From: Candidatus Melainabacteria bacterium
Lineage (GTDB): Bacteria; Cyanobacteriota; Vampirovibrionia; 2-02-FULL-35-15
Assembly: GCA_023250205.1 (NCBI GenBank)
Contig: JAHFBE010000004.1
Location: 4,359-53,868 of the forward strand
Direction: 5' to 3'
Length of the DNA: 49,510 bases
A model generated the notes under the pieces. The model had not been told where the DNA came from, made no database searches, and saw only the letters and a program-made list of their open reading frames with translations. The position numbers were made by a program, and so were the translations under genes. Each line of letters begins with the position of its first letter. Positions within the stretch are counted from its first letter, which is position 1. Shown here piece by piece: positions 5,329 to 38,448 of the stretch.

Positions 5329-6732
5329 ATGGTTGGAGGAGTTACTTTTTCACCAAGCGGTTATTGGGATAGTTATGTCTCAGGAGCTACAACACCTCTT
5401 TCAGGAAGAAAACTGAGAGGGGAATATACGAGTATTGATGAGGCTGTAACAGAATCAAAAAAGACTGATATAACAGACTATGTAAAAAAAGGTCATTTGT
5501 GGGGTGGAGTAAGTACAGGAGTAGGGGCATTATTTGGCTATTTCTATACAAAAGTAGAAAGTGGTTTTTGGAAAGCAATACTTGGTTTTATAAGTGCTAC
5601 CAATATTCTTAGTGGATTAGCTCAAGTAGTGATTGCAACTGTTTGTAAAAACCCTGAAGAGGAAAAGATGAAACAACTTCTTCCTAATTATATTACAAAG
5701 GAAGATGCTTCAATAACCCTGGATGAGATGGATTTAGAAAAACATCAAAAGGAGACCCTTGAATTTATTGTAGATAAAGCAAAAAAACAAGGAGTGGTAG
5801 TTAATGCTTACGGACCTGTTGGGGTTGGCAAAACTATGAGTGGAAGAGCTATTGGTGGGGAACTTGTTAAACAGGGCGCCTGTAAAGCGGCTAAAGTATG
5901 GATTTCAAAAGATGATTTTCTTAAGGTTGAAACTATAGATAGAGCTGGCAAGCCTATTTCTATTTTTGGATATACGATTGTTGGTGGTGAAACAATAGCA
6001 CAGAGAATTGAAAGAGTCGTTGCAAATGCAATTAAACATTATAAGGAAACTGGTGAATATGTCGTTGTTGTTTTAGATGAAGCTCAAGTTCTTCTTGAAG
6101 GTCATGATATGTGGGGGGATTATAAATATAATAGGAGTTCAACTGATCCAAATGATAGACCTCAAGTTATTCAAGCATGGGCAAAAATTGTTGATAGGGT
6201 TCAAAGTGAAACAGGAGATTGTAAAGGTGTAGTGTTGGTCTCAACTTCTAATTGTGAATATAATCCATTTGAATTTTTGAAAAGAAGGATGGAGGATTTG
6301 CATTTAAATAGACCAGATGAAGAACGTAGAGAACAATTTTACAGAACATATATTCCAAAATTTTTAAAGAAAAATGGACTTGAATCAATTACATTAAACG
6401 ATAATGACTATAAAGAACTTGCAAAAATAGGAACAGAAAATGTATTTAAAAAATATTATGAACATATGCGTACAACAGGTTCATTTGCTTATGATCATCT
6501 CCCTGACTATGTAAGGCCTTTTGAGGAAGAACTTAAAAAGTATCCAATGTTACATATTGATGCTATGGTGAAAGGTATAGATAAAGCAATTTTTGAAGCT
6601 AAAAAAGGAGGAGATTTTCTCTCTAAATTAAAAGAGAGATTAAGGCTAACTACAGATGAAGCTTTAGGTAGAAAGCAAGCAATTGAAGATGAACTTCAGG
6701 GAAGATTAAAAGACACTATATCAACTTATTAG
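5329..6732 (+). CDS. Divergent AAA+ ATPase with N-terminal membrane hairpin
   Basis: Walker A GPVGVGKT, Walker B VVVVLDE, sensor-1-like STSN and a KRR arginine-finger region. Two hydrophobic segments lie at about aa 57-105. SD GAGGG upstream. Confidence 0.75.
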   Translation: MVGGVTFSPSGYWDSYVSGATTPLSGRKLRGEYTSIDEAVTESKKTDITDYVKKGHLWGGVSTGVGALFGYFYTKVESGFWKAILGFISATNILSGLAQVVIATVCKNPEEEKMKQLLPNYITKEDASITLDEMDLEKHQKETLEFIVDKAKKQGVVVNAYGPVGVGKTMSGRAIGGELVKQGACKAAKVWISKDDFLKVETIDRAGKPISIFGYTIVGGETIAQRIERVVANAIKHYKETGEYVVVVLDEAQVLLEGHDMWGDYKYNRSSTDPNDRPQVIQAWAKIVDRVQSETGDCKGVVLVSTSNCEYNPFEFLKRRMEDLHLNRPDEERREQFYRTYIPKFLKKNGLESITLNDNDYKELAKIGTENVFKKYYEHMRTTGSFAYDHLPDYVRPFEEELKKYPMLHIDAMVKGIDKAIFEAKKGGDFLSKLKERLRLTTDEALGRKQAIEDELQGRLKDTISTY

Positions 6733-7935: not shown

Positions 7936-10581
7936 ATGGATTTTAATAAATTAACAACAAATTCACAGCAAGCACTTGCAGAATGTAGATCAATACTTGA
8001 AAAGTATGAACACTCAGCACTTGAGCCTGAGCATATTTTAATTTCTTTAATTGAGCAAATAGATGGAATTGCTTCAAAAATATTAGATGAAGTTGGTGTA
8101 AGTAAAAAAAGAATTATAGATAAAATAAATGAATATTTAGCAAAACAGCCCAAGGGAAGAGCTTCAGCTACTGGTGGAGATCAATTATATTTAAGTTCTA
8201 AAGCAAATCTACTTCTTGAAAAGGCATTTGATGAAGCTAAAAACATGAAAGATGAATATATAAGCGTAGAGCATATTTTACTTGCTATTGCTGATGCTAA
8301 TTCCAGGAGTGAAGCTCACAAAATTTTAAAAGACGAAGGTGTTACAAGAGAGCAGATTCTAAAGGTATTAACTAAAATAAGAGGAAATCAAAGAATTACC
8401 AGTCCTACTCCTGAAGCTACTTATGATGCTCTGGGTAAATATGGACGTGATCTTACAGAAACTGCAAAAAAAGGAAAACTTGATCCTGTAATTGGAAGAG
8501 ATGAAGAAATCAGAAGGGTGATTCAGGTTTTATCCCGAAGAACAAAAAATAATCCTGTTTTAATTGGTGAACCTGGTGTAGGTAAGACTGCAATTGTAGA
8601 GGGGCTTGCACAAAGAATTGTAAGAGGTGATATTCCTGAAGGACTAAAAGATAAAAAAGTCATTGTTCTTGATATGGGAGCTTTAATTGCCGGTGCAAAA
8701 TTCCGTGGTGAATTTGAAGAGAGATTAAAAGCAGTTTTAAAAGAAGTTCAGTCTCATGAGGGAGAAGTGATTTTATTTATCGATGAATTGCATACTGTTG
8801 TAGGTGCGGGTTCAACTGGTGAAGGTGCTATGGATGCTGGCAATCTTTTAAAACCAGCACTTGCTCGTGGGGAATTGCATTGTATAGGAGCTACTACTCT
8901 GGATGAGTATAGAAAGCATATTGAAAAAGATGCAGCGCTTGAAAGAAGATTTCAAACAGTGTTTGTAGATGAACCTTCAGTAGAAGAAACTATTTCTATA
9001 TTAAGAGGCTTGAGAGAAAGATATGAAGTTCACCATGGTGTGAGAATTAAAGATGCGGCATTAGTAAGTGCTGCAGTTTTAAGTCATAGATATATTTCAG
9101 ATAGATTCTTGCCTGATAAAGCGATTGACTTAGTAGATGAAGCAGGAGCAAAACTTAGAATAGAAATTGATTCTATGCCGGTTGAATTGGATGAGCTAGA
9201 AAGAAGAAGAATACAGCTCAGTATTGAAAGAGAAGCGTTAAAGAAAGAAAATGATTCTGCCTCTAAAGAAAGGCTTGAAAAGTTAGAAAAGGAATTAAAT
9301 GAATTACAGGCAAAGGCTGATATCTTAAAAGCTCAGTGGCAGAAAGAAAAAGGTGGAATCTCTGTAATTAGACAAATTAAAGAACAAATTGAGGAAACAA
9401 AAAGACAGATAGATAAAGCAGAAAGAGAAACAGACTTACAGAAAGCTGCAGAGCTAAAGTATGGAAAATTAAATGAATTAGAAAAAAAATTAAAACAGGC
9501 ATCACAAGCAGGTTCTCCTGAAAGTAATGGAAGGATGTTGAAGGAAGAGATAGATGAAGATGATATTGCAGAAGTGGTTTCTAAGTGGACACATATTCCT
9601 ATAAGCAAATTGCTTGAAAGTGAAAAACAAAAGCTTATAAAACTTGAAGATGAAATTCATAAGCGTGTAATAGGGCAGGAAGAAGGAGTTGTAGCGGTTT
9701 GTAATGCAATTCGAAGATCAAGATCTGGCTTAAGTGATCCACAAAAACCAATTGGATCTTTTATTTTCCTTGGTCCAACTGGTGTAGGTAAAACAGAATT
9801 AGCTAAATCGCTTGCTTATGTTTTGTTTGATGATGAGCAAAATATGATTAGAATTGATATGAGTGAATATCAGGAAAAGCATACAGTAAGCAGATTGATT
9901 GGTGCACCGCCTGGATATGTTGGATTTGAAGAAGGTGGACAGCTTACTGAACAGGTGAGAAGAAAACCATATTCTGTAGTTTTATTCGATGAAATTGAAA
10001 AAGCACATGCTGATATCTTTAACATCCTTTTGCAGGTTTTAGATGATGGCAGGTTAACTGATTCTCAAGGCAGAGTGGTTGATTTTAAAAATACAACTAT
10101 TATAATGACAAGTAATATTGGTAGTCAGATTATCCTTGAACATCAATTAAAACTCAGCATGGATGGTGGAGATTCTGAAGTTTATTATGAACAGGTCAAA
10201 GAAAAAGCTTTTGGTATTTTAAGAGAACATTTCAGACCAGAATTCTTAAACAGAGTAGATGAAATAGTTGTCTTTAACCCGCTTAAAACAAGTGAATTAA
10301 CAAAAATTGTTGATATTCAGTTAGAGCATATTAAAAAGAGATTAGAGGAAAGGAAAATAAAGCTGGAATTAACAGATGACGCAAAAGAACATCTGGCTAG
10401 AGTTGGTTATGATCCTACCTTTGGTGCTAGACCTTTGAAGAGATTAATTCAAAAAGAGCTTGAAAATGAACTTGCAAAGGAACTTTTAAGTGGGAGATTT
10501 TCTGAAGGTGACATTATTAAAGTAGATTATGATGGGGATAAAGTTGTTTTTACTAAATTGGCGCACAAAGTGAAAATTTAA
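7936..10581 (+). CDS. clpB: ATP-dependent chaperone ClpB
   Basis: Clp N-domains, GEPGVGKT (NBD1), long coiled-coil M-domain, GPTGVGKT (NBD2), RIDMSEY and GAPPGYVG. Confidence 0.97.
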
Positions 10582-10600
10582 TAATGTATAACACTCTATA

Positions 10601-10619
10601 ATGTAACCATGGGTTACAT
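10601..10619. promoter_or_regulatory. Putative operator palindrome ATGTAACC-ATG-GGTTACAT over the mutL start codon
   Basis: Perfect 8-bp arms; the 3-nt spacer is the mutL ATG. TATAAT at 10597-10602 overlaps the left arm. The same palindrome occurs at 37423 and 37499. Confidence 0.6.
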
Positions 10620-12510
10620 TAAACAACTTTCAGAAGATTTAATAAAAAAAATTGCAGCTGGTGAAGTTATTGAAAGACCAGCATCTGTAATTAAAGAGCT
10701 TGTAGAAAATTCTATTGATGCTGGTGCTACAAAAATTCAAGTAGAAATTGAGCGTGGTGGGAAATATATAAAAGTTTCTGATAATGGTATGGGTATTGAA
10801 CCTGACGATATTAATTTATTGTTTGCCAGACATGCCACGAGCAAGATCAGAAGCTTTGATGAATTATGGGATATACATACTCTGGGTTTTAGAGGTGAGG
10901 CTCTTTCCTCAATAAGTGCTGTAAGTAAGGTTACATGTAGATCAAAGCATGTAAACCAGGAGTATGGGTTTGAAATAAAGTTACAGGATGAAAAGATAAA
11001 TAAAAGAACATCAGCAATTTCTATTGGAACAGTATTTGAAATAGATGATCTCTTTTACAATGTTCCAGCCAGACAAAAATTCTTAAAGTCAGAATCTACT
11101 GAATATGGACATATATTTGATATATTAATTCCTTTGGCATTATCACATCCTAAGATCTCATTTACACTTACAAGTAATAAAAATGTTGCTTTAAAATCAA
11201 GTGGTTCAAATGATTTACAGCAAGTTATTGAGGAGCTTCTTGGAAGCGATTTAAAAAATAAACTTATCCCTGTCTCAGGAAAGAATGACTTTCTTGATTT
11301 TAAGGGATTTGTTAGTGCGCTTGAAGTCTATAGACCAGACAGAAAGTCTGTATTCATTTTTATAAATAACAGACCAGTTAAGTGTCAAATTATTTCTAAG
11401 GCTATTTTTAGTGCTTTTGAAGGATTATTGCCAAAAGGGAAATATCCCGTAGTTATTTTAAATCTAAATTTTAAATCTAAGTTTGTCGATATAAATGTTC
11501 ACCCTTCAAAAAAAGAAGTTAGATACACACAGCCAAATGATGTCTATAACTTGATCTTTCATTTAGTTCAAGATGCAATTACTAAATACTATAAAGAACA
11601 ATACAAAGAAAAATCGATTTATTCTCTTGACCCGGCATTGAAGAGTGAAAAGACAATAGATAATGGAGGTAAGACTTCATCTTCAACTAGTGCTGCTACA
11701 GCCTCATATTCTCAGGCTGCTTTTGAGCTGTATACTCCAATTGAAAGCTTTACAGATGAAAAGATTGAGGATATTGATATTAAGCCACTCGTGCAAATCC
11801 TTTCTTCATCAAATTTAAAATGCAAGATTATCTATTCTAATAAACCATTTGCAAATATGACAAAGATTGGAAATAAAACTATTTTTGAAGTTGGAATGAT
11901 TTATGAAGATGATTTGCAAGTTGTTTTTAGTGGGGAGATTGTTGGTGAGCCAAATTATCAAAAAGATTTTTTTAATTATTTATCAAATCTAAGCAGTATT
12001 ATTTTTAAAACATACTCAGAAAATCAAACGGTTCTTCAAAAGAAAATCGTAAATAAAGACTTAGAGCAAGAAGATGTAAAAGAACCCAGTCGTAAGAAAC
12101 CACCTGAAACACTTTTATACAAAGTGTGGGATAGAGACAACTGGACATGTGTATATTGTGGGAAGCAATTACTAGATCCAAAAATTGTTAAAAGGACTAT
12201 TCCTGAGACAGAAAATGCATTTAAGACTTATATTAATGAAAAAGGTGAAAGTATAACCAATCATGTTTTAAGAGAGTATATTGCTACCTATGATCACTAT
12301 TTACCGGTTAGCAAACTACCACAGTTTAACTTTGAAGAAGGAAATCTTTTTGCTTCCTGCATGGAGTGTAATAAAAAGAAATTAGACTCAATGGATATTC
12401 AAACCTGGAAGCCTGTTCGGAAAAATTCATGGAATCAGACTCTTGAAGTTGCAGGATTATGTTTTAGTGGACCGGATAAAGTAAAGTTAGAAACTAAAAG
12501 AACAAAATAG
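10609..12510 (+). CDS. mutL: DNA mismatch repair protein MutL (GHKL ATPase + transducer domains) with an atypical C-terminal HNH endonuclease domain
   Basis: IAAGEVIERPASVIKELVENSIDAG, GFRGEAL and DINVHPSK are MutL signatures. The C-terminus reads VWDRDNWTCVYCG...DHYLP...NLFASCMECNKKK (HNH). No DQHA-x2-E-x4-E motif is present. Confidence 0.88.
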   Translation: MGYIKQLSEDLIKKIAAGEVIERPASVIKELVENSIDAGATKIQVEIERGGKYIKVSDNGMGIEPDDINLLFARHATSKIRSFDELWDIHTLGFRGEALSSISAVSKVTCRSKHVNQEYGFEIKLQDEKINKRTSAISIGTVFEIDDLFYNVPARQKFLKSESTEYGHIFDILIPLALSHPKISFTLTSNKNVALKSSGSNDLQQVIEELLGSDLKNKLIPVSGKNDFLDFKGFVSALEVYRPDRKSVFIFINNRPVKCQIISKAIFSAFEGLLPKGKYPVVILNLNFKSKFVDINVHPSKKEVRYTQPNDVYNLIFHLVQDAITKYYKEQYKEKSIYSLDPALKSEKTIDNGGKTSSSTSAATASYSQAAFELYTPIESFTDEKIEDIDIKPLVQILSSSNLKCKIIYSNKPFANMTKIGNKTIFEVGMIYEDDLQVVFSGEIVGEPNYQKDFFNYLSNLSSIIFKTYSENQTVLQKKIVNKDLEQEDVKEPSRKKPPETLLYKVWDRDNWTCVYCGKQLLDPKIVKRTIPETENAFKTYINEKGESITNHVLREYIATYDHYLPVSKLPQFNFEEGNLFASCMECNKKKLDSMDIQTWKPVRKNSWNQTLEVAGLCFSGPDKVKLETKRTK

Positions 12511-24275: not shown

Positions 24276-27200
24276 TTACTGTCCCAATTTATCTATTAAT
24301 ATTGCACTAGAAGCTTCACCAGGATTATCAAAATTTAATTGAGAATTTGGAAGTACAAATTGTAGCGGAAAGGTTTCGTTGGTAATTAGGTTGGTATTGA
24401 AAGTGTTAACAACTAAATCAATAAAGGCTTCAGCTCGATCCGGCTCAAGTATTCCTTTGCTAGATGGTTTTCCAGCTTCAAAAGTCCCAGAAGCATAAAG
24501 TCTTAAAGCTTCTGCAATTTCTGATACTGAAACGTTTATATTTGGTTGTAATGATAGTCTTGTTAGATAGGCACCTGCTCCTGTTGGATTTAAAATAGTT
24601 TGAATATCACCTTCTGGGCTGTTAAGGATTGTTCTTGACTGTATTACTTTATCTACAGTTGTGAATCTCCCATACTTTCTAAAAACCCCACCCCAGAAAT
24701 TACCTATTGGTGAAGGAAGATTTAATAGAGTCTTTTGAGGAACATTTGCAGTCATGCTGAAAGTGTTTTGTTCATTGAATTGCAAATGGATATTATATTG
24801 TCCATTTTGTATACAGCCAGTAAATATTCCTGGTTGTAATGGTATATGTGAAAATGGTTCAATAACTTTTAAGTTTGTATTAAATAATTCATTTGTAGCT
24901 GAAATACTTACCATTGTATTTGTTCTCTTAATATCTAAATTATTTAAATCTTTCCCTATGAAAAATCTTCTATCTATTATACCTATTACATTTGTACATG
25001 TAGTATCTGTCGTATCTGATTTTAACTGTGCATGTGAAAGAGTGAAATAAAGAACTAGCCCAAGCAGTCCTATAGCTGCTATATCTGGAGCACTCAAGGT
25101 TCCAGCACCTATAGCTGCTGCATTTGCTAAGCCATTAAGTAGAACGGAATTTGAAAGCCCAGAAGCATTTACTTGTGGACTTATTGTTCCGATTGTTCTT
25201 AAAGTGTTTGCTGAATTAATAAGTGAAACTATATAAGGAAGGTTTGTCTTAGTTGAAGTTGAAATATATTCTAAGTAGTTTGTTGATGATATTCCACAAG
25301 TTAAAGTACTACCAGTAATCTGTGCTTTAAGATTTGATTCTCTATTATCATCTTTTAGTACACATCGTAATTGATCTATCGTGTAAAGAAGTTCATACGT
25401 GGCTTCCTGTGTCTCTAAATCATAGCCATTGTTATTGTCTTCACTTAAAAGTTTTAGATCTTTTAGAAGCCGTTTAAAATCTTTTAAAGATATTTTGTCA
25501 TTAGAAGAGAAACTTAATCCTTTAACACCAAGAATAGGATCATCCGATATTGTAGCCGTTCCATTAGTTACAAATGGAAGATTAATAGTATCAGTTTCAT
25601 TGCTTGATTCTGTAAAGAAAGAGCTTTCACCAATTTTTAGTTCACATACATCACTCTCTCCACCAGAAGTCAGAGTAAATATTACTTCTGTATAAATACT
25701 CCATGCTTGAGGAAGAGTGAATGAGATTATTCCACTTTGAGCCCAGTCAGTTTTATCTTTAAATTCTACGGGAAGTGGAATTGATTTATCGATAGTGCCA
25801 TCAGGTTTCTTTCCATTAATTGAGACATATGCTGACTTTGTAGATTTGAGAGCATAGTTAAAATCTATACTTTGACTGATACTTGCAGCATTTGGCTCCA
25901 GATTACAGAAAGTTATCTGCACAGAAGGGTCGAAAATTGGCACCGTTGATACTGTTTTGAATTGACCATTAAGAATATTGAAATTAAATTTATTTTTATT
26001 TAATTTATCCTGTACGAAGTTTAAGAAATCATCACTTCTGTTTAATGTAACTAGTGCCTCTGTAGTTTCAGGAGGTAGATTTTCTATTTTTTTAGTTTTT
26101 GATTGTTGTCCTTTTGGAATAAGAACTGATGTATTAAATTCCCCGAGATTTCCAAGAATCATGCCACTTTCATCTTTAGGCTCTACCACTAATTCCAGAG
26201 GGAATCTCTTTCCTTTTGGTCCGTAACTCGGAATATTGTTTTTAATTGTTAGATTTAAAACTTTTGTATTCGTTTTTGAATTTGTTTTTAAAGCACCTTT
26301 TACTACTGGCTTGTCTAAGAGAATTAATTCTTGTGGCTCAGCATATGACTCAGTCGGAAATGTAGAAACTGAAGGAGATAAAGTAGTAATTTCATTGTAG
26401 AGAAAAATCGGACCAATGGCACTTAGGTTTTCAAAAGCATCTTTAAAATTGTTTTCTGTACTGAGATTGAAGTTTAAATTATATTCAAAGCTTACAGTGT
26501 CTTCATTCAGACTACTTGCCATAATTCCTTTAATGACTGAATCATTGTTATTACTAGAGGTAACGATTCTTATAACGTCATCAGAACCAAACCTAATTCC
26601 ATACTTTGCAAGATTTTTAATTTTATCTGTGCTTAATGCCTGTAAGTCAACAGGAAGTTTAGCCTTATCTAAGATAGATTTAATTAAAGTTTTTGAAGAT
26701 TGGATAACAGTGTATTCTTCCGGCTGAATAATCTCTACAGCAACTTCAGGATTTGACTTAATATCTTTGAAATTGGCAAGGTATGAAGACCAGCTATCAG
26801 TTAGATTCCCTGAATCAGGAGAAAAACTTATAGGAAGAGTAAGTGTATATGAAGAAGAATCTTTTGTTAGTTCTTTAGGTGTGTAACTAAAAGAACAATT
26901 TGCTGCTAGTTCTCTTGTGGGGGATAAAATATTTGGCTGATAATTACAGCTAACAGTTACATTATCTCTTTCTCCTGTAGGAGTTTGAATATATGCCTGC
27001 CCTAAACGTGGAAGATGGTCTTGATCTTTTATCGGAATAGAATCGTATAAGTTTAAATTAAATGTAATATTATTTAATTTATTCCAAAGTAAGTTCTGAG
27101 GTTTTAAAGCAGATATTTTCGCATTATAATCCCTTGTAATGTTAATAATGAAATTGTTCGTGAGCTGAGTTGAATAGTTTTCTAAAGTTGTACCAAAGTG

Positions 27201-30200
27201 ACTTCTTGAAGTGTCTGTAGAAGTGATTGTATGGGAAAAATTATACTGCCCAATAGTCCAGTATAAAGTAGGATCTGGAGAGTTTGCATTAATATCAAAT
27301 AGTTCATTTGATAAAGTTCTATTTAGTATGAAAGATTCATAGACATCATAAGTGTTGCTACTACATCCATCTATATCGCCCAAGGTGCCAGAGTTACTAA
27401 TTGTATTTGAGTTAATTGGTGGATATGCACCTTTACCATTCAATAGGATTTCTTTAGTTCCAAATTGTAATTTGGATAAATCATTGACTTGTAACTCAAA
27501 AGGTGTCTCACTATCACTTACAGGCAAATCATCATCGTCACAAATCTTGGACTTAATAACTAATTCAAACGGTTCACCTTGTTTGAAGTTATGAGGTTGA
27601 CCATCATTATAAATAATTTGGACATCGTTATTTGATACATTGCTTAGTAATTTGATTTGTCTGTTGTCATTTATATTAATTTCATCACTTGTAATATTCC
27701 CAGCTCTGTCTTTTACATTGATTTCTACTTTAGATAGAGGGGAATCTAAAGTATTTGGATCAATAACAATGCTAAAAGCTTTTTTACCATTATCAAGCTC
27801 CTCAATGTCATCTTCATACAATTCCTTGAATGAATTATTTTCATTTATTCTGTAGGAAATTGAGTGAAATTGTTTATCTTCAATAGTTCCAGAAATTAAG
27901 AGCTTATTCTCAGGAAGAATTAAATCATTTTCATTAGGTGACTCTATATTTAGTAGAGGTGCTTCTGTATCCACTATAATCTCTCTTTCTTCACTCATAA
28001 AGAGTTCATCGGAGGAATCTACAGTTTCAAAGTAATAAGTGTTTATACCTTCACTTAATGAGATCGTTTGATTTTCACTAGTTTGATCTAGTTCTGTCGT
28101 AGTTTCATTTTCGTCTTCATCTCTTACCTTGATTTTTAAGCTGTTGTTTGGATCATCAGGATTTGCAAAGGATGTTAGTACCATAAAGGTAACAATTGAT
28201 TGGTTTGTAAATGATACATCTGAGAGATCGTCTAATAGATAGACTCCACTTGTACCAGTTCCGGCTACTGTGATTTCTGGAACATTAAAGACAAATTTTC
28301 TTATAGACTCTTCTATATAAACTGTTAGCTTTGGTGTATATGTTCCTGGCGTAGTGTAAGTGTGAGTAAAAGTTTTTGTGAGTAACTGATCAAGGGTAAT
28401 ATTTTCTAATTCAATATGAGATTCTTCGCTAGAGTTTACCCTGAGCGAAGCGAATGGGCTCGCAATGACAGAGTCACCCCAATCAAGCTCATATTTTGAA
28501 ACTGTTGCATTAACTGCTTTTGCGGTTTCATTATCGATCATTAGATTTACAGTCAATGGGACTATTCCTGAAGCTTGCTCTGGTCTTACATCTAAGAGAA
28601 CAAAGTTTGGTTCAGCATTAAATGTAATTGTTCCAGCACTTGCTTCCCAAGTTTCTTTTTGTCCACTTCTAAACACCGTAGAAACTGTAAGTTTTGGTGT
28701 AACCGATTTCCTGTCTGTGTATGGCGAACCATTAAAAGATTTATTATTGTCAAAGTAATAGTGCGTAGGATTTGGAGAGGTGCAGTCATCTGGAAGAGAA
28801 TTTCCCTTACAGCTTTCATCCCCAAAATCCCATTTATATGTTTGTGACTGAACATGACCACCAAGAACTTTTACATCAGATTTGAATCTTACGGGGATTC
28901 CTGCAGTCCCACTGGGGATTACTTCGTCGCTATTGCTCCCTGCAATGACATTTGGATCGTAAACTTTTTTATCAGAAGGATTCGTCGTGGCAAATACTAT
29001 TACTCTTTGTGAAGGTTTTGTCAGTGTAACTGATTCTGTAGAAGCCGTATCCGTCAATCCGGCTTTGTCTTTTACAGTAAGTGTTGCAAAGTAACTTCCC
29101 GGAGTAAAGAGACTTCCTGAATAGAAACTCTTCCCATCTTCTGACACTTTTCCATCAATTGGCAGTGATACTAACTGTGAATCCTGATTAAATCTTAGCT
29201 CAAAGAGTTTCCAGTTATTTAACTTTGAGTCTACAAAATCAAGAGCACTTGAAAATCTTTGGTTTGGATCGTAGCTATCTAAATCTACAAAGGTAGTAAA
29301 TAATGGTGGTGTAGTAGTAAATGTATCTCCTGAAACTTTTGCTTTAGCTATTGGATTGTAGTTTGGATATATAAAAACTGTTGGTCCATTATATGTTCCT
29401 ATCTTTGTTTGAACACCATTTTCATTCCAGAATAAGTCTACCTGTGGATTTGCGATTTGTGGAGTAGTTAAAGATTTGTTTGTGTTTTGATAAGTGAAAG
29501 TATAGTTATCATTTGCTATAGCTAAGCTTTCTCTGCCATCTCCAGATTTGAAATTATATCTTAGATTTGAAGAGTATTCCTGACCCGTAGAAATTTGTAC
29601 TTTGTATTTTATGGAGTGTCCATCCTGAATTACTTTATTTCCCACCTGGACAAATCCTACATTGTCGGAAGAGTTCTCTTCAATTCCAAAAATAGTTCCT
29701 ACTGCTGGTTTTGGTGTAAAAGTTAATCTGTGTGAAGCAGGAATTAAAGTATCTGAATATTCACTCAAGATACTTCTTGCTGCTAAATATTTCAATGCTT
29801 CAATACTTGTAAACTCTTCGCCAATGGATGAGTTTCTTTGAACAGTAGCAATTACTTTACAATTTCCATTTTTTGATTGTAGGTTTAATGGAATTGAATC
29901 TTTAAAGAATGTATCCCCATTTGAATCTTTTACTCCATTTATCGTAGTAGTAGAAAAGTTATTTGAGTTATTTATAGCAGTAAGAAGTTTTCCATCAGGA
30001 TCAAATACTGCAATATAAGCTGTATATGTAGCGTTTGGATTGTTTCCTTTTACTTTTAGTTCTACATCAAAACTGTTTCCGGGGAATGGTTGTATCGGTG
30101 TAATTTTAAAGGAACTATCTACCAGTTTGAAATCATCTGTGACTGCAAGAGAAAGAATTGAAGAATCTTTTCCATTTCCATGGAGTTGTACTAGTTTTGC

Positions 30201-33200
30201 TCCAGGACTTGAGAATTTGTCTGGTATATAAACTATAATTTGATTTTTATTTACGGAGTTTTTAGTAATTATCTGATTATCAATGGTTACATTTGTATTT
30301 TGATCAAAATTATCTCCGTTAATTGTAAGTATCCTCTTATTTCCTTCCAGAGAAATGTTATTAGGGCTTATTGAATAAAGTTTTGGACCACTGTTGTTTG
30401 TAAATATCACATCATTTACATAAAGTAAGTCATTTGGATTTCCATTAAAACTTATTTTTAGTTCATGTAATCCGCTTGAAAGAGTTCTTGTATCCAGATT
30501 TTCCCAGGATAGAGTTTGACTTGTTTGTACAAAGCTTCTGCTAATAAGGTTTCCATCAATCCAGAAATCCACATAGTTCCAATCTGGAGTTCCTGATTTG
30601 TAGTGAGATAAATTGAGTGAGGTTTTCACATCATAAGTATTATCCAGGCAAAATGGAGTACTTACTGAACCTGAACCCTGAATAGTTGCAGAAGGTGAAC
30701 TTAAGAAAGTATTGTTTCCACTAAGTACTGTAGTAGAGTCACTTCCCCAGTATGTTTGCGGCAATGTTTTCTTTAAGTTACAGACATTGCTTTGATTTGC
30801 CTTTGCTGTGTAGTAAGAAATGTTTGATTGGGAGCCGTCAGAATTTAAAACCGATATTGATTTTCCTCCTAAATACTGAACGAGGTTAGCTGGTATTCTT
30901 ATGTAGATTGTATTTGCATCATTTGCAAATGGTGTAAGTAAGTATCCATCAAAATAAACTCGAGATGTTTCTCTAAAATTATTTCCGTTAATTCTTAAGT
31001 CAAATGCTCCTCGACCAGCAGTTCCTTCTGTTGGGAAAATTGAAGAGATTTGTGGCTGAACTGTTTTTGTAAATGTAAAATATCCGGATGTCCAGGTTCC
31101 TGAAGCTAATTCATTTCCAGAATTATCTGTTGGTCTAAATTCTACTTTTATCCTTGGATTTGTAGTTGTGCTTGTAAATGATATTCCAGCGCCTGCCCAC
31201 CATTGTATTGAACCTGCAAGCTTTGAATCTACGTAAACATTTGTCTTTGTCCATTTTGCAAAAGGAGTATTGGCAAGAGAACCTTTCCAGCCAAGTTCAA
31301 TGTATCCATCTCTTTCAGTAATAACATCCAGTGTTAATGAATTTGAGCTGCTTGGGCTAATTGTTACCCATGGATTTACTACATAGTTAAAGTTTGAGAT
31401 TTCAAACCCAGCAGTTTGTAGCTTTGTGATTTTTTGAGCAGAATTTGAAGCAGCTACACGGGTATTTAAAGAAGCTGCTTCAGTTTCTCCGCTCTTTTGT
31501 GGTGATTTTGTTTCACCAACAAAACCTCTTACAAAAAATCCTTGATTAATCAAATCTTGAATCTCCACGTCATTGCGAGGAGCCTCTAAAGGAGGCGACG
31601 TGGCAATCTCATAAGTGTTAGAACGCTCATGAGATTGCTTCGTCAGTTTTTCAAACTTCCTCGCAATGACATATGGGGTAAGTTCTTTTTTCTCCCCATA
31701 TTCCCTATTCCCTAAATCCCCAAATCCTTTTTCTACAAAATCACTTACAGCACTAGGTAAAGCAATTCTTTCTACTACCACACCAAGTTCATCTACATTT
31801 AAGCCAACATTAAACGTTATAGCAATTTCTTCATTTGTTTCTTGTTCTGCTGTTGAGCTGTTCCTTGCAATTTGATTTCCATTTGTATCTGTAGCTGATA
31901 GTTTTAATGTATATAATCCAGGAGGCAGATCTGCAGGAATGCTAATACTTTCTTCTAAGTATTGTTCATTTGTTATTGAGTTATCTTTGTTCTTACTTTC
32001 TAAATCAATTACTTTTTGCGTAATTATTTTTTCATCCAGCCCATATAACGTATAGCCAAAATTACTTAATCCAATATTATCTCTGACAAAACAGGACAGT
32101 CTAACTGCTCCACCAGGATTAACGGTCTTAGGCTCAATTGTTATTGGTCCAATTTCTGGTTTTTTGTTATCAGATGAAATGAATATATCAGTGACTTCTT
32201 TTATCATTGACTCAATTGCAGATTCAATTTCTTCTTTTGTATAAGTGTCATTCTGAGGAGCATCAGCGACGAAGAATCTCTTAACGTTAGTAGATTCTTC
32301 GCTATCGCTCAGAATGACATTATTTGAACGAAACAATGCTTCGTTGCTAACGCTCCTTGCAGTGGCATATTTAGCAATCTTTATAGAAGAAGCCTGTGCA
32401 AAGCCTACATTATTTTCATTATCTACGACAACTAAAGTTGGAGTAAAAGTACCTTCACTGTTATATGTATGCTTTGGTGAAATCTCTGTAGACTTTTCAC
32501 CATCACCAAAGTCCCATGTAAGAATTTGTAGTCCACCACCTGCTTTTGGATCATAACTTTCAGAAGCATCAAAATTTATCTCTAGTCCCGGTTCGCCAAT
32601 ATTTTTATCGCTTAGTATTTTAGCTATTGCAACAGGTGCTTGATCTGGTGTAATAGTATAAGTCTCCCCATAGAATCTAGTTTTTGTTCCATCTGATTTT
32701 TCTATTTCTAATATTGGTGTGTATTGTCCTGCTTTTGTAAAAGTATATTCAAATTCTTCATTTGTAGAGATTAGCTCATTATTCACTTCATCGGAAAGAT
32801 CAATCAAATTTCCATTTACATCCCATGTTCTAGCACTCCATATCCATTTGTATTGAAGAGGTGTATTAGGATTTTGCGGATCAAAGCTTCCAACAGCAGA
32901 TAGCTTTATCATTGCCTGACCAACAATACCGCTATCATTTCCTTCTAGCTTTGTTATTTGTCCGACTGGTGTATTATTTGCTCCAACAATAACATTTCCA
33001 ATATTTATTTTTTTAAGTCTGTTGTCAGGTGTAAACGCTGTTAATGATGCTAGATATACTCCGGGATCCTGATAGGTGTGTTTAATTATTCCTTGAGTAC
33101 TATCTATTATTTGAGAATTACCATCTCCAAAATCCAGCTTAATACTTACAGCTTTACCGTCATAATCCTGTGAACTGCTTCCATCAAAGGTAACTTCAAA

Positions 33201-34892
33201 AGGAGCATTTCCTGTCGTTTGATCTAACTTAGCATTTGCAAGTGGTTGTGGCTTTAAAACTATTGTTGAAATTGTTTTTGAGCTTTCTCCCCTGCGAGTA
33301 TCACTAACTGTAAGTTTTACATTATAGGTTCCTGAATCTTTGTATTCATGTTTTGGACTTACTTCGTTACTTGTTGTATTGTCACCAAAGTCCCAAGTAT
33401 ACGTAAGCTCTTCATTATCAGGATCATAAGTTCCATTACTTACAAATTGAACTTCACTGGTGAAAAACCCTTCCTTATTTTGTTTTAAAATACTTTCTTT
33501 TGGAACTGCTGCGATTTGAGTTATTGGTAAGTTGTTTGGTGGGAGTAGTGTAATTTTTGTAGAAGTGATGGTTGTCTTTGCTCCAAGGATATCGTTAACT
33601 ATAAGCTTTGGCTGATATTTACCTGGAATTGTGTATGTGTGAGATGGGTTTTGTTCAGTACTGGTTTGTCCATCACCAAATTCCCAATAGTAGGATATTT
33701 CATCATTCTCTTTATCACTAACATTTGCAGTAAATGTAATACTAAGTGGAACATCTCCCTTTGTTTCATTTAATATAAAGACTCCTTCGGGAGCAAAGTT
33801 CTTTTCTCTTATTTCGATTTCTTTTGTAATAGCAGAAGTTTTTCCATAAGCATTTACTACATTTAAACGGGCTATGTATTTCCCCGGTTTTTTATAAGTA
33901 TGAGATATTACGGGATCTGTAGAAGTATTCTGATTCTCTTCAGTTGAATTTTCTAAATCCCCCAAGTTCCAAGAATAACTAAGCGCTTGTCCAAAATATT
34001 TTGCTAGTAAATCCTCAGTAGTTCTTCCATCAAAAGTAATAATCTGTGGTGCTACTCCAATGCTTGGTGTTGCATTGATTTTTGCAATTGGAATTGGATT
34101 TACTACCATTACATTAAAGCCTTTGCTTACCCCACCTAAAGGAGGTGGATTTGCTACAAAGATTTCAAAATTATTTTCTTTATTTAAATAGTTTGCTGGA
34201 ATAGTGGTAATCAACTTATTTGGTGAAACATATTTGGTTTGGATTTTCAGTGTTCCTATTGAAGCAACTGAATCTTGTACAAAATTGTCACCTTCTAAAC
34301 TTACATCAATAGATCCTCCGTTTTGTGATATTGGTAAGAGGTTGGGAGATATAAGTCCAAGAAGAGGTATTCCATTAAACACTTTATATGAAACATTATC
34401 GCTGGTAAGTTTAAGAGCTTCACCAGTAAATGAAGTAAGAGAATAGCTTGCAGGGAGTGAGGTAAGTCTAATTGCTTCAGCAGTTTGTGATATAGAGTAG
34501 CTTACAGGATTAGAGGACAGTTGAATAGCAGATGCAAGGTCTATAGTGCTATAGCTTACAGGATTGGAAGAAAGCTGAATAGCGGATGCAAGATTTGTAA
34601 TATTAAAGCTTACTGGTAAAGAACTTGATTGAATTGCTGTTGGGGATAAAGAAGTATCAAAGCTTACTGGTTTGGACTGAACTATTGAAAGGTTAAAGTC
34701 ATTTGTTGTTTGGGCTTTAGAAGGCAAGAATGAAAACGGATCAAGAAATAGAAATTTCAAACACAGGAAAAGAAGAAATACTTTTCTAAACATGAAACTA
34801 TATTTCTTAAAGTATCTTGTTAAGAAATAAGCTGAAACTCCGAAGCGCTTTCCTCTTGTTATTATTATTTCAAGGTAGAAATGTCTTTTCAT
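24276..34892 (-). CDS. Giant secreted/surface protein with ~10 PKD and ~3 IPT/TIG Ig-like domains and a distinct C-terminal region
   Basis: Repeated Y.W.FGDG...H.Y..PG.Y motifs and P.I.SI.P...I.G.NF motifs. A signal peptide follows the alternative start ATG 34793 (MFRKVFLLF...PSKA-Q). About six N-terminal AIQLSSNPVSY-type repeats. Confidence 0.88.
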   Translation of the reverse strand: MKRHFYLEIIITRGKRFGVSAYFLTRYFKKYSFMFRKVFLLFLCLKFLFLDPFSFLPSKAQTTNDFNLSIVQSKPVSFDTSLSPTAIQSSSLPVSFNITNLASAIQLSSNPVSYSTIDLASAIQLSSNPVSYSISQTAEAIRLTSLPASYSLTSFTGEALKLTSDNVSYKVFNGIPLLGLISPNLLPISQNGGSIDVSLEGDNFVQDSVASIGTLKIQTKYVSPNKLITTIPANYLNKENNFEIFVANPPPLGGVSKGFNVMVVNPIPIAKINATPSIGVAPQIITFDGRTTEDLLAKYFGQALSYSWNLGDLENSTEENQNTSTDPVISHTYKKPGKYIARLNVVNAYGKTSAITKEIEIREKNFAPEGVFILNETKGDVPLSITFTANVSDKENDEISYYWEFGDGQTSTEQNPSHTYTIPGKYQPKLIVNDILGAKTTITSTKITLLPPNNLPITQIAAVPKESILKQNKEGFFTSEVQFVSNGTYDPDNEELTYTWDFGDNTTSNEVSPKHEYKDSGTYNVKLTVSDTRRGESSKTISTIVLKPQPLANAKLDQTTGNAPFEVTFDGSSSQDYDGKAVSIKLDFGDGNSQIIDSTQGIIKHTYQDPGVYLASLTAFTPDNRLKKINIGNVIVGANNTPVGQITKLEGNDSGIVGQAMIKLSAVGSFDPQNPNTPLQYKWIWSARTWDVNGNLIDLSDEVNNELISTNEEFEYTFTKAGQYTPILEIEKSDGTKTRFYGETYTITPDQAPVAIAKILSDKNIGEPGLEINFDASESYDPKAGGGLQILTWDFGDGEKSTEISPKHTYNSEGTFTPTLVVVDNENNVGFAQASSIKIAKYATARSVSNEALFRSNNVILSDSEESTNVKRFFVADAPQNDTYTKEEIESAIESMIKEVTDIFISSDNKKPEIGPITIEPKTVNPGGAVRLSCFVRDNIGLSNFGYTLYGLDEKIITQKVIDLESKNKDNSITNEQYLEESISIPADLPPGLYTLKLSATDTNGNQIARNSSTAEQETNEEIAITFNVGLNVDELGVVVERIALPSAVSDFVEKGFGDLGNREYGEKKELTPYVIARKFEKLTKQSHERSNTYEIATSPPLEAPRNDVEIQDLINQGFFVRGFVGETKSPQKSGETEAASLNTRVAASNSAQKITKLQTAGFEISNFNYVVNPWVTISPSSSNSLTLDVITERDGYIELGWKGSLANTPFAKWTKTNVYVDSKLAGSIQWWAGAGISFTSTTTNPRIKVEFRPTDNSGNELASGTWTSGYFTFTKTVQPQISSIFPTEGTAGRGAFDLRINGNNFRETSRVYFDGYLLTPFANDANTIYIRIPANLVQYLGGKSISVLNSDGSQSNISYYTAKANQSNVCNLKKTLPQTYWGSDSTTVLSGNNTFLSSPSATIQGSGSVSTPFCLDNTYDVKTSLNLSHYKSGTPDWNYVDFWIDGNLISRSFVQTSQTLSWENLDTRTLSSGLHELKISFNGNPNDLLYVNDVIFTNNSGPKLYSISPNNISLEGNKRILTINGDNFDQNTNVTIDNQIITKNSVNKNQIIVYIPDKFSSPGAKLVQLHGNGKDSSILSLAVTDDFKLVDSSFKITPIQPFPGNSFDVELKVKGNNPNATYTAYIAVFDPDGKLLTAINNSNNFSTTTINGVKDSNGDTFFKDSIPLNLQSKNGNCKVIATVQRNSSIGEEFTSIEALKYLAARSILSEYSDTLIPASHRLTFTPKPAVGTIFGIEENSSDNVGFVQVGNKVIQDGHSIKYKVQISTGQEYSSNLRYNFKSGDGRESLAIANDNYTFTYQNTNKSLTTPQIANPQVDLFWNENGVQTKIGTYNGPTVFIYPNYNPIAKAKVSGDTFTTTPPLFTTFVDLDSYDPNQRFSSALDFVDSKLNNWKLFELRFNQDSQLVSLPIDGKVSEDGKSFYSGSLFTPGSYFATLTVKDKAGLTDTASTESVTLTKPSQRVIVFATTNPSDKKVYDPNVIAGSNSDEVIPSGTAGIPVRFKSDVKVLGGHVQSQTYKWDFGDESCKGNSLPDDCTSPNPTHYYFDNNKSFNGSPYTDRKSVTPKLTVSTVFRSGQKETWEASAGTITFNAEPNFVLLDVRPEQASGIVPLTVNLMIDNETAKAVNATVSKYELDWGDSVIASPFASLRVNSSEESHIELENITLDQLLTKTFTHTYTTPGTYTPKLTVYIEESIRKFVFNVPEITVAGTGTSGVYLLDDLSDVSFTNQSIVTFMVLTSFANPDDPNNSLKIKVRDEDENETTTELDQTSENQTISLSEGINTYYFETVDSSDELFMSEEREIIVDTEAPLLNIESPNENDLILPENKLLISGTIEDKQFHSISYRINENNSFKELYEDDIEELDNGKKAFSIVIDPNTLDSPLSKVEINVKDRAGNITSDEININDNRQIKLLSNVSNNDVQIIYNDGQPHNFKQGEPFELVIKSKICDDDDLPVSDSETPFELQVNDLSKLQFGTKEILLNGKGAYPPINSNTISNSGTLGDIDGCSSNTYDVYESFILNRTLSNELFDINANSPDPTLYWTIGQYNFSHTITSTDTSRSHFGTTLENYSTQLTNNFIINITRDYNAKISALKPQNLLWNKLNNITFNLNLYDSIPIKDQDHLPRLGQAYIQTPTGERDNVTVSCNYQPNILSPTRELAANCSFSYTPKELTKDSSSYTLTLPISFSPDSGNLTDSWSSYLANFKDIKSNPEVAVEIIQPEEYTVIQSSKTLIKSILDKAKLPVDLQALSTDKIKNLAKYGIRFGSDDVIRIVTSSNNNDSVIKGIMASSLNEDTVSFEYNLNFNLSTENNFKDAFENLSAIGPIFLYNEITTLSPSVSTFPTESYAEPQELILLDKPVVKGALKTNSKTNTKVLNLTIKNNIPSYGPKGKRFPLELVVEPKDESGMILGNLGEFNTSVLIPKGQQSKTKKIENLPPETTEALVTLNRSDDFLNFVQDKLNKNKFNFNILNGQFKTVSTVPIFDPSVQITFCNLEPNAASISQSIDFNYALKSTKSAYVSINGKKPDGTIDKSIPLPVEFKDKTDWAQSGIISFTLPQAWSIYTEVIFTLTSGGESDVCELKIGESSFFTESSNETDTINLPFVTNGTATISDDPILGVKGLSFSSNDKISLKDFKRLLKDLKLLSEDNNNGYDLETQEATYELLYTIDQLRCVLKDDNRESNLKAQITGSTLTCGISSTNYLEYISTSTKTNLPYIVSLINSANTLRTIGTISPQVNASGLSNSVLLNGLANAAAIGAGTLSAPDIAAIGLLGLVLYFTLSHAQLKSDTTDTTCTNVIGIIDRRFFIGKDLNNLDIKRTNTMVSISATNELFNTNLKVIEPFSHIPLQPGIFTGCIQNGQYNIHLQFNEQNTFSMTANVPQKTLLNLPSPIGNFWGGVFRKYGRFTTVDKVIQSRTILNSPEGDIQTILNPTGAGAYLTRLSLQPNINVSVSEIAEALRLYASGTFEAGKPSSKGILEPDRAEAFIDLVVNTFNTNLITNETFPLQFVLPNSQLNFDNPGEASSAILIDKLGQ
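28418..28470. repeat. In-frame half REP-like element inside a PKD domain (encodes VIASPFASLRVNSSEES)
   Basis: Minus strand reads TGTCATTGCGAG-CCCATTCGCTTCGCTCAGGGTAAACT-CTAGCGAAGAATCTC. Confidence 0.8.
31569..31670. repeat. In-frame full REP-like element (102 bp) in the giant gene (encodes VIARKFEKLTKQS...EIATSPPLEAPRND)
   Basis: GTCATTGCGAGGAGCCTCTAAAGGAGGCGACGTGGCAATCTC...GAGATTGCTTCGTC...TCCTCGCAATGAC; arms nearly identical to 488..588. Confidence 0.92.
32247..32318. repeat. In-frame REP-like element, CTG variant (72 bp; encodes VILSDSEES...RFFVADAPQND)
   Basis: GTCATTCTGAGGAGCATCAGCGACGAAGAATCT...AGATTCTTCGCTATCGCTCAGAATGAC. Confidence 0.88.
32334..32366. repeat. Eroded in-frame half element (encodes ATARSVSNEAL)
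   Basis: CAATGCTTCGTTGCTAACGCTCCTTGCAGTGGC matches the reverse complement of the 21981 left arm at 27/33 positions. Confidence 0.65.
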
Positions 34893-37422: not shown

Positions 37423-37441
37423 ATATAACCGACGGTTACAT
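37423..37441. promoter_or_regulatory. Palindrome ATATAACC-GAC-GGTTACAT (operator candidate, 1 mismatch)
   Basis: Matches the palindromes at 10601 and 37499. Confidence 0.55.
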
Positions 37442-37498: not shown

Positions 37499-37517
37499 AT
37501 GTAACCCACGGTTACAT
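37499..37517. promoter_or_regulatory. Palindrome ATGTAACC-CAC-GGTTACAT (operator candidate)
   Basis: Perfect 8-bp arms identical to those at 10601; ends 36 nt upstream of the RAYT ATG. Confidence 0.6.
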
Positions 37518-37553
37518 GTGTGTGAAAACAAAAATTGTAAAATAAAAATTATT

Positions 37554-38102
37554 ATGAAATATAATCCTGAAATTCATCATCGCAGATCAATTCGATTGAA
37601 AAATTATGATTATTCACAAAATGGTTATTATTTTGTCACAATTTGTACGCAAAACAGGCAATGTTATTTTGTGCAAGAATGTGTCATAAAAATGATAGAA
37701 AAATGGTGGTATGAATTGCCAAATAAATTTTCAAATGTTCAAACAGATGAATCTATTGTAATGCCGGATCATTTCCATGGAATTATTGTGATTACCGATT
37801 CCGTAGGGGCAGACCCGTGTGTCTGCCCAAATATAAAATGGGACAAACACATTGGTTTGGAAACATCGGGCAAACACATTGGTTTGCCCCTACAATCAAT
37901 TGTTCAATGGTTTAAAACAATGACCACAAATGAATATATTAGAAACGTGAAAAATCTAAAATGGAAACCATTTGATAGAAAATTGTGGCAACGTAATTAT
38001 TATGAACATATTGTTCGGGATGAAAAAGAATTATATAGAATCAGGCAATATATTAAAAACAACCCAATAGAATATTTGCGTAAGAATAAAGATGATATGT
38101 GA
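37554..38102 (+). CDS. REP-associated tyrosine transposase (RAYT / Y1 HUH, IS200-like)
   Basis: HHRRSIRLKNYDYS, YFVTICT, HUH motif MPDHFHGII, WQRNYYEHIVR and catalytic Tyr in YIKNNP. Start placed at MKYNP (ATG 37554). Confidence 0.9.
   Translation: MKYNPEIHHRRSIRLKNYDYSQNGYYFVTICTQNRQCYFVQECVIKMIEKWWYELPNKFSNVQTDESIVMPDHFHGIIVITDSVGADPCVCPNIKWDKHIGLETSGKHIGLPLQSIVQWFKTMTTNEYIRNVKNLKWKPFDRKLWQRNYYEHIVRDEKELYRIRQYIKNNPIEYLRKNKDDM
37803..37893. repeat. Inverted pair of GTAG-type REPs embedded in the RAYT coding sequence
   Basis: GTAGGGGCAGACCCGTGTGTCTGCCC ... GGGCAAACACATTGGTTTGCCCCTAC, plus a partial extra arm at 37840-37860. Confidence 0.85.
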
Positions 38103-38118
38103 TAAAATATTTTTTATT

Positions 38119-38448
38119 ATGTCAACCACATCAAATAATATAGTCAAAGTTTGTAAGGTTAATGAACTTCCTGATGGTCAGGGAAAATCGGTTCAGGCTA
38201 ATGGAAAAGAAATTGGTGTCTTTAATGTAAAAGGCAAATACTATGCCATTGATAATCACTGTATTCATGCTGGTGCACCTTTAACAGATGGTTCTATTGA
38301 TGCTGAAAAATGTCAGGTAGTATGTAGCTGGCATTCATGGACTTTTGATTTGGCTACGGGGAAATGTGTTAGTCATCCAAAGCAAGATGTTTTTACAGGT
38401 ACTTATAATGTAGAAGTTCAGGGTGATGAGATTTTTGTTTCTGTTTAA
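38119..38448 (+). CDS. Rieske [2Fe-2S] ferredoxin (NirD/dioxygenase ferredoxin-like)
   Basis: CxH (CIHAG) and CxxH (CSWH) motifs plus FDLATG. Start at ATG 38119, after TGA-TAAAAT. Confidence 0.9.
   Translation: MSTTSNNIVKVCKVNELPDGQGKSVQANGKEIGVFNVKGKYYAIDNHCIHAGAPLTDGSIDAEKCQVVCSWHSWTFDLATGKCVSHPKQDVFTGTYNVEVQGDEIFVSV

Follow-up and report, generated by a model that had tools for sequence, protein, structure and literature searches.

The stretch of DNA analysed here (the window; 49,510 nucleotides) comes from a Candidatus Melainabacteria bacterium, and Melainabacteria are non-photosynthetic relatives of cyanobacteria. It carries three copies of a palindrome with the consensus TGTAACC-N3-GGTTACA, one of which lies on the start codon of a mutL homologue, while the other two lie upstream of a gene for a REP-associated tyrosine transposase (RAYT; REP, repetitive extragenic palindromic element). 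The original prediction, made from the letters of the window, took these copies for the site of an unidentified regulator shared by the two genes. All three palindromes, together with the TATAAT hexamer that overlaps the first of them, were confirmed in the sequence, and the palindrome is very probably a transcription-factor site that defines a regulon. The features concerned are as follows.

10597..10602, + strand: -10-like hexamer TATAAT, the last T of which is also the first base of TGTAACC
10601..10619, no strand: 19-bp palindrome aTGTAACC-ATG-GGTTACAt, whose loop is the mutL start codon
10609..12510, + strand: mutL homologue of 633 aa, with a GHKL ATPase and transducer N-terminal part (TIGR00585, residues 4-351) and an HNH-like C-terminus instead of MutL_C
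37423..37441, no strand: distal palindrome aTATAACC-GAC-GGTTACAt with one mismatch, 76 bp upstream of the proximal copy
37499..37517, no strand: proximal palindrome aTGTAACC-CAC-GGTTACAt, 5' of the RAYT gene
37538..37543, + strand: -10-like hexamer TAAAAT, which begins 22 nt past the proximal palindrome and lies 10 nt ahead of the ATG
37554..38102, + strand: RAYT-like Y1 HUH transposase gene, 182 aa from ATG 37554, Pfam Y1_Tnp, single copy in its genome

Distribution of the palindrome

The window is contig C29 of its own genome, G000 (2.085 Mb in 83 contigs, 33.6% G+C, 86.5% complete). Comparison was made with 11 other genomes of the same Melainabacteria family (G001-G011, from nine genera), which gives 12 family genomes with G000 included. 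Below, C-numbers denote contigs of G000 and L-numbers denote fetched loci.

With up to two mismatches allowed, the window contains exactly three TGTAACC-N3-GGTTACA sites against 0.08 expected, and none of 100 shuffles reached three. Across the whole of G000, 18 sites were found at no more than one mismatch, 11 of them perfect, and the reversed pattern gave none. The conserved core can be written as TGTAA-N7-TTACA, that is, GTA-N9-TAC, which spans 17 bp with an odd centre and is mostly flanked by A...T. The hits in G000 are not randomly placed: all 18 lie outside open reading frames (ORFs) of at least 120 aa, which make up 84.8% of the genome, and for 17 of them an ORF that points away from the site begins within 110 bp, against 8.4 +/- 2.1 with a maximum of 14 in 300 random intergenic sets. 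Each of the 11 other family genomes possesses 7-39 sites. In nine other families of the class, represented by 29 genomes, 21 genomes are without a site and eight have 1-4, which is about the chance level (0-2 for the reversed control). A search for weaker sites with a weight matrix gave bimodal scores and nothing new above 14 bits, a search that is circular, because the matrix was built from the sites with at most one mismatch.

The variable spacer noted in the original prediction was borne out in that the triplet varies, but it is not free and shows a genome-specific bias: CAC, TAC or CAG in G000 and G001, AAA or TTT in G003, and GCC or GCG in G006. In G008, an identical variant, TGTAACTCTCGGTTACA, stands at both dprA and comM. 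An AT-rich, partly palindromic motif, CTTAGAAAAATTTAATCTT, also occurs in either orientation, both within the 50-bp doublets and 4-8 nt ahead of many sites; examples are given below, and the comM doublet of G002 carries it the other way round from G000 and G001.

G000 C74:51781-51805: CTTAGAAAAATTTAATCTT
G000 C54:2811-2836: CTTAGAAAAATTTAATCTT
L054 and L059: CTTAGAAAAATTTAATCTT in the spacers of the comM and ssb doublets

Sites are few in G004 and G007, and those of G004 are partly degenerate, with the gene for a CRP-like protein (see below) intact there. A shift of the motif in G004 to TGATAC-N5-GTATCA was considered and dropped (7 matches against 4 in the control, no enrichment). DNA uptake sequences (DUS, or uptake signal sequences, USS) occur in hundreds to thousands of copies, many of them within genes; the palindrome was not assigned to this class, given its 7-39 copies per genome, all extragenic in G000. 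The literature searched gave only unrelated oligonucleotides as matches to the motif. Among these, a match to the Acinetobacter UmuDAb site was discarded, because the words occur only in mutated oligonucleotides for electrophoretic mobility-shift assays, and in the natural site TGTAAC and GTTACA are separated by 8 nt instead of 5.

Two other elements were seen on the way. A hairpin repeat of the cgtc...gacg type lies at about 2880-2925 of L058 (G000 C54), between a palindrome and a UPF0102/YraN gene 650 bp off, and a 3538-aa ORF on the - strand (24276-34892) takes up a fifth of the window.

Genes behind the palindrome

In G000, a palindrome doublet lies 36 nt from the start of comM, a single palindrome lies 38 nt from the start of dprA, and a further doublet precedes an operon that encodes a small lysine-rich secreted protein and then a 117-aa single-stranded DNA-binding protein (SSB). 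The other targets are mutL, the RAYT gene and eight paralogues of a membrane protein of about 70 aa. The same target classes recur in G001, G003 and G006, where ORF6N genes, RhuM/Fic, GIY-YIG, BrnT, YraN and RecJ are added; at one site of G003, a pilC-like T2SSF gene is divergent from recJ. The co-control of two DNA-cutting genes proposed in the original prediction is supported for mutL and the RAYT gene but was drawn too narrowly, as dprA, comM, ORF6N, RhuM/Fic, GIY-YIG and the small membrane proteins are also included.

The sites recur at orthologous promoters across nine genera, which supports the proposal that mutL and the RAYT gene share a cis-regulatory site as members of a real regulon. 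A site precedes dprA in 11 of the 12 family genomes and comM in 10 of the 12, mostly as 50-bp doublets in the latter case; at both genes, conservation of the arms reaches at least 90%, and the centre and the flanks are variable. Upstream of dprA in other families, the palindrome was found in 0 of 22 cases, and no substitute palindrome was found there either. The palindrome is also enriched at recA and ssb, two of the genes that the original prediction named for a check. The recA operon carries a site in all 10 genomes where the operon was found (it is missing from the incomplete assemblies G000 and G011), with recA downstream confirmed in 8 of the 10 loci, and the ssb orthologue lies behind a site in 4/4 genomes examined. 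Wherever it was found, the first gene of the recA operon encodes a secreted protein of about 350 aa with no Pfam family, located 2-47 nt upstream of recA. It is exemplified by the following loci, given as the reverse complement for matches on the minus strand.

L249:327-1373: gene for the ~350-aa secreted protein, upstream of recA
L250:310-1392: gene for the ~350-aa secreted protein, upstream of recA
L248:303-1394: gene for the ~350-aa secreted protein, upstream of recA

The membrane proteins of about 70 aa form an orphan family with the signature M..EEKYRAE.F.I.GF..MTPFGK, predicted to be membrane-located, with 8-10 paralogues per genome, nearly all of them behind a palindrome. No Pfam or NCBIfam model matches the family; a set of 5.8 billion proteins contained 107 relatives, and those with a name are all hypothetical proteins of Melainabacteria. 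Example genes are as follows.

L053:4074-4280: ~70-aa membrane protein gene
L051:3755-3967: ~70-aa membrane protein gene
L052:3713-3934 and 5811-6020: two ~70-aa membrane protein genes
L056:3763-3966: ~70-aa membrane protein gene
L061:4088-4309: ~70-aa membrane protein gene

Taken together, the regulon is most likely one of DNA recombination and single-stranded DNA, with transposase-like genes attached to it. In each of the 12 family genomes, the dprA palindrome is preceded at 20-60 nt by the end of a FliA/WhiG-type sigma factor gene (L060:3121-3975; L100-L111); this gene was read as conserved fliA-dprA synteny and not as the factor that recognizes the site, because the site is two-fold symmetric.

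The presence of the palindrome at the recA and ssb operons would also fit the LexA (SOS) box of this lineage. However, this explanation is hardly credible: lexA was found in 11/11 relatives and in none of them is the palindrome located upstream, while 10 of the 11 lexA genes carry a different box, GAACATTTGTACATTTGTACAAG, within 150 nt upstream (L090, L091, L092 and others). The palindrome is thus not a LexA-type box, and lexA, which the original prediction had also named for a check, shows no enrichment. The box GAACATTTGTACATTTGTACAAG is presumably the LexA box of this family, and we take it to resemble the GAAC/GTAC-N4-GTAC boxes bound by LexA in Gram-positive bacteria and cyanobacteria. 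Three recA loci showed no such box, and a crude scan of G000 gave 24 scattered matches.

The RAYT genes raise a different explanation, namely that the palindromes are REP/REPIN elements spread by RAYT transposases and that their promoter position is secondary. The protein encoded in the window matches Pfam Y1_Tnp (E 2.6e-10) and possesses the HUH motif HFH and a YY motif, and its best NCBIfam model is "REP-associated tyrosine transposase" with 67.9 bits, under the cut-off of 80. Its start is likely ATG 37554 and not GTG 37518 of the longest ORF, which places the end of the proximal palindrome 37 nt ahead of the start codon. A Rieske [2Fe-2S] ORF (38092-38448) begins 11 nt before the RAYT stop codon. 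RAYT paralogues within one genome are 37-71% identical to the window protein, and several of them carry one or two in-frame stops, TGA or TAA (L017, L018, L028, L031 and L033 of G001, G010 and G005).

According to the operational definition available from the REP-finding literature, a REP is repetitive, extragenic, palindromic and located in noncoding DNA adjoining a RAYT gene (PMC3116915), and the same source treats the cellular role of RAYTs as an open question. The palindromes studied here answer to this description, and a REP-finding pipeline would call them REPs: 15 of 20 family RAYT loci carry a proximal palindrome within 200 bp upstream, 28 of 120 site clusters are doublets with fixed spacing, and the genome-specific central triplets resemble concerted evolution. 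The orthologous RAYT gene of G001 even has the same 76-bp palindrome pair. Against this, palindromes are found only on the 5' side of RAYT genes and in promoter register, with 0 of 20 loci showing one within 1.5 kb downstream, and no other inverted repeats were found around the window RAYT gene. Four genomes in which no RAYT was found by protein query or NF047646 (G004, G006, G007 and G011) keep 7, 29, 8 and 14 palindromes, respectively. Furthermore, the same arms recur over nine genera at orthologous genes with a fixed spacing to the -10, the copy number of 7-39 is low, and no compensatory changes were found. The GTAG or CGTC tag reported for one end of REP palindromes (PMC3733652) was not seen on reading of the sites, where GTAG occurs only by chance when the loop is GTA.

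The REP/REPIN explanation is therefore largely refuted by the genomes lacking RAYT, the upstream-only placement and the orthologous positions, and we regard it as very unlikely. Since the sites are orthologous in nine genera, the palindromes do not behave as a mobile repeat, and the RAYT genes would be targets of the regulon rather than makers of the repeat. It follows that being repetitive, extragenic, palindromic and RAYT-adjacent is insufficient ground to call an element a REP, and the data suggest that the RAYT genes here are co-regulated with the machinery that handles single-stranded DNA.

Promoter register and candidate regulator

Promoter geometry was assessed on 148 unique sites (G000 plus all fetched loci) at offsets 1-60 on both flanks, 296 flanks in total, with gene calls unused. 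A TANNNT hexamer starts at offset +22 in 63 of the 296 flanks, against 2-24 at any other offset, and the stricter TANA[AT]T gave 33 flanks at +22 against about 2.5 elsewhere. This +22 arrangement is present in 61 of the 120 site clusters, and 10 further clusters carry TTGAnn-N16-18-TAnnnT starting 18 or 29 nt downstream, positions one helical turn apart. At the recA operon, the +22 hexamer is TAGTAT in 7 of 10 genomes, with TAGGAT and TAACAT in two more. Many +22 hexamers are preceded by TGn, and the start codon usually follows 4-12 nt after the -10, so that leaders seem often to be short or absent. The scan detected no -35 at the two promoters of the window; for the TATAAT of mutL, the scan covered spacings of 16-18 nt. 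The 28 doublets have spacings of 29-32 bp (7), 48-50 bp (17), 61 bp (2) and 76 bp (2).

As the site ends 21 nt before the -10, its centre would lie near -42 if transcription starts about 7 nt past the hexamer, and we infer that a minority of sites are centred near -62 and -73, one or two helical turns further upstream. The dimeric repressor site of the original prediction is thus probably the site of a dimeric factor, whereas the position is mostly that of an activator and only the mutL site overlaps a start. In the mechanism that we favour, the palindrome would bind a dimeric transcription factor and the regulon would be specific to one Melainabacteria family; a protein of the CRP/NtcA type would activate RNA polymerase from the site near -42 in the class II manner, with a -10 that has no -35 partner. 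That the factor acts as an activator at -42 is, judging from this register, somewhat more probable than the contrary.

The mutL promoter is arranged differently. Of the 11 genomes with a mutL match, 9 have the palindrome over the start codon (8 with no more than one mismatch, G006 with two), with ATG or GTG as the loop; in G004 and G005 it is degenerate. The orthologous mutL starts thus largely share the motif. Its 3' arm is coding (Gly-Tyr) and its 5' arm is noncoding yet equally conserved, and a NANAAT hexamer ends on the first base of the palindrome in the same register in 11/11 family genomes. We infer that transcription of mutL starts at or near the start codon, so that the mRNA would be leaderless and the palindrome would extend from about -7 to +10. 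A site over the predicted transcription start and the start codon is a repressor position, and repression of mutL by the bound factor is plausible, with the chances for and against nearly balanced. The same regulator, sitting on the mutL start, would then repress the MutL-HNH gene while the recombination genes are induced. The mutL homologue is the family's sole MutL, and MutS is present. The C-terminal 306 aa (11590-12510) contain a CxxC..DH..N..CxxC HNH-like module (Pfam HNH, E 0.035), and the MutL_C domain was not found in the four genomes examined; the endonuclease domain of this MutL may have been replaced.

Another explanation is that the element works as an RNA or single-strand hairpin, which could serve as a terminator, a stabiliser of the upstream gene, or a translational lock that hides the mutL start codon. 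For the mutL copy, a fold of -10.2 kcal/mol (z -3.9) with the AUG in the loop was calculated, and an alternative promoter-like match, TTGGCG-16-AATAAT at 10558-10585 of G000, would transcribe the whole palindrome. In addition, many sites lie 2-47 bp past the stop codon of the upstream gene, and in 36 of 54 cases a single mismatch is a change of C7 to T, after which one strand can still form a G-U pair. However, the palindrome is untranscribed at most targets, because the -10 lies 22 nt downstream, and no terminator-like T tract was found by scan. The other two copies of the window fold weakly, at -8.3 (z -1.6) and -2.4 kcal/mol, and the window has no Rfam family match. None of 18 two-mismatch sites is compensated, while 9 of the 18 share the half-site TGATACC, and an invariant 7-bp arm sequence is unnecessary for a hairpin. 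A hairpin is therefore highly improbable as the general explanation of the element; at the mutL site alone, a translational effect of the hairpin is possible, because this copy folds well.

Each of the 12 family genomes encodes one CRP/FNR-family protein (HTH_Crp_2) of 234-244 aa, which is 71-95% identical within the family, at most 40% in two genomes of another family and lower elsewhere; no orthologue was found in four other families. In G000 the protein has 240 aa and is encoded at C73:703-1422. All family members have the same recognition helix, RETVNR, and homologues from other families have a different one. The residues GE..RSA of the cAMP (cyclic AMP) pocket are kept, the best solved relative is Escherichia coli CRP (1.4e-23), and the protein scores best as CRP (102.6 bits) and not as NtcA (E 3e-4). 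This sole CRP-family protein is our tentative candidate for the factor that binds the palindrome, a proposal that we hold at somewhat below an even chance, and the regulator would then possibly be cAMP-responsive. Other candidates were rejected: a WYL-domain activator of the PafBC/DriD type was found in only 2 of 12 genomes, as was the M78 peptidase expected for an IrrE/ImmA-type protease with an XRE repressor (DdrO type), and a family of about 73 aa adjoining sites in G003 and G006, considered as an autoregulated factor, was not found in G000.

The same site and regulon could instead belong to a LexA-independent, SOS- or competence-like repressor, such as a cI/XRE dimer, released by DNA damage or single-stranded DNA. 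The content of the regulon is SOS-like, comprising recA, ssb, comM and mobile or toxin-like genes (RAYT, GIY-YIG, BrnT, Fic and the small membrane proteins), and the site lies over the start at mutL. The TGn before many +22 hexamers makes an extended -10, which is able to work without an activator. Operators of the cI/XRE (lambda) type are 17 bp long with 7-bp arms, and the length and odd centre of the present site fit them. On the other hand, sites one or two helical turns upstream and tandems of about 50 bp are typical of activators, neither an IrrE/ImmA-type protease nor a WYL regulator is conserved (2/12 each), and LexA has its own box. Moreover, a site that extends from about -50 to -34 covers neither the -10 nor the start, which is unusual for a repressor and canonical for class II activation as the NtcA source describes it (PMC3898017). 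We consider such a repressor unlikely.

The explanation as a whole, a site of a new regulon that acts mainly in activation and has a CRP-like protein as candidate factor, appears likely to us. Several observations weigh against it. Neither promoter arrangement is present in 49 of the 120 clusters, including mutL and unassigned sites, and strict TANNNT at +22 follows only 4 of 15 RAYT proximal sites (NANAAT follows 8 of 15). All +1 positions were deduced from -10-like hexamers, which are common in a genome of 33.6% G+C, and the site counts are not independent, because orthologues from related genomes are included. A genome-specific central triplet is seen even at the orthologous dprA and comM sites, which a simple half-site model does not predict. 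As to the candidate factor, the sites of CRP, FNR and NtcA are even-centred (e.g., TGTGA-N6-TCACA), and a 17-bp odd-centred site is unusual for the CRP family. The CRP-like gene has no palindrome upstream, and its recognition helix is unchanged in G004 though the dprA, comM and mutL sites there are degenerate. The restriction of the CRP-like orthologue to the family is weak evidence, because any family-specific protein shows it.

Comparison with known systems

Under the SOS response, as under the present palindrome, recA, ssb and mobile or toxin-like genes stand together under one palindromic site. Unlike a LexA box, the palindrome lies upstream of the -10, not over it, and LexA of this family has its own box at lexA.

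The closest likeness in promoter architecture is to NtcA of cyanobacteria. Class II promoters of NtcA have a GTAN8TAC site with its centre at -41.5 and a TAN3T box at a distance of 22 nt, and NtcA acts as a repressor if the site covers a start point (PMC3898017). The palindrome shares with these promoters a two-fold symmetric GTA...TAC site, 22 nt to TAN3T and the lack of a -35 (PMC3898017), and repression over the start point is likewise proposed here at mutL. The host lineage is a sister group of the cyanobacteria in which NtcA is found, and encodes one CRP-family protein. Unlike the NtcA site, the site here is GTA-N9-TAC with an odd centre instead of GTA-N8-TAC, and each arm is conserved at all seven positions. 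The regulon here concerns DNA recombination and not nitrogen, and the binding of the factor is a prediction.

In gene content, the regulon resembles the cytoplasmic half of the CRP-S regulon (SSB, DprA and ComM), with recA in addition (PMC1635313). The CRP-S/Sxy competence regulon of gamma-proteobacteria has the core TGCGA-N6-TCGCA and is dominated by DNA-uptake genes (PMC1635313). Both systems place a CRP-type palindrome before the cytoplasmic DNA-processing genes dprA, comM and ssb, and both regulons were traced by phylogenetic footprinting (PMC1635313). The differences are that comEC has no palindrome upstream in 4/4 genomes here, and that the members include recA, mutL, RAYTs, ORF6N genes and the family of small membrane proteins.

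Among the papers listed in the literature search, none described a Melainabacteria regulon, and the one outlined here would be the first for these uncultured bacteria, obtained from sequence alone. One CRP-family master regulator, possibly cAMP-sensing, might switch the cell into a programmed recombination state, in which the recA operon, the short SSB paralogue, DprA, ComM, the domesticated RAYTs and the small membrane proteins are on and MutL-HNH is off. Such a combined scheme is speculative and, taken as a whole, rather unlikely. If it were true, RAYT expression would be timed to the presence of single-stranded DNA, and palindromes that look like REPs would be operators of a recombination switch. 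If the activator position at recA, dprA and comM and the repressor position at mutL were confirmed, the arrangement would couple recombination to relaxed mismatch repair.

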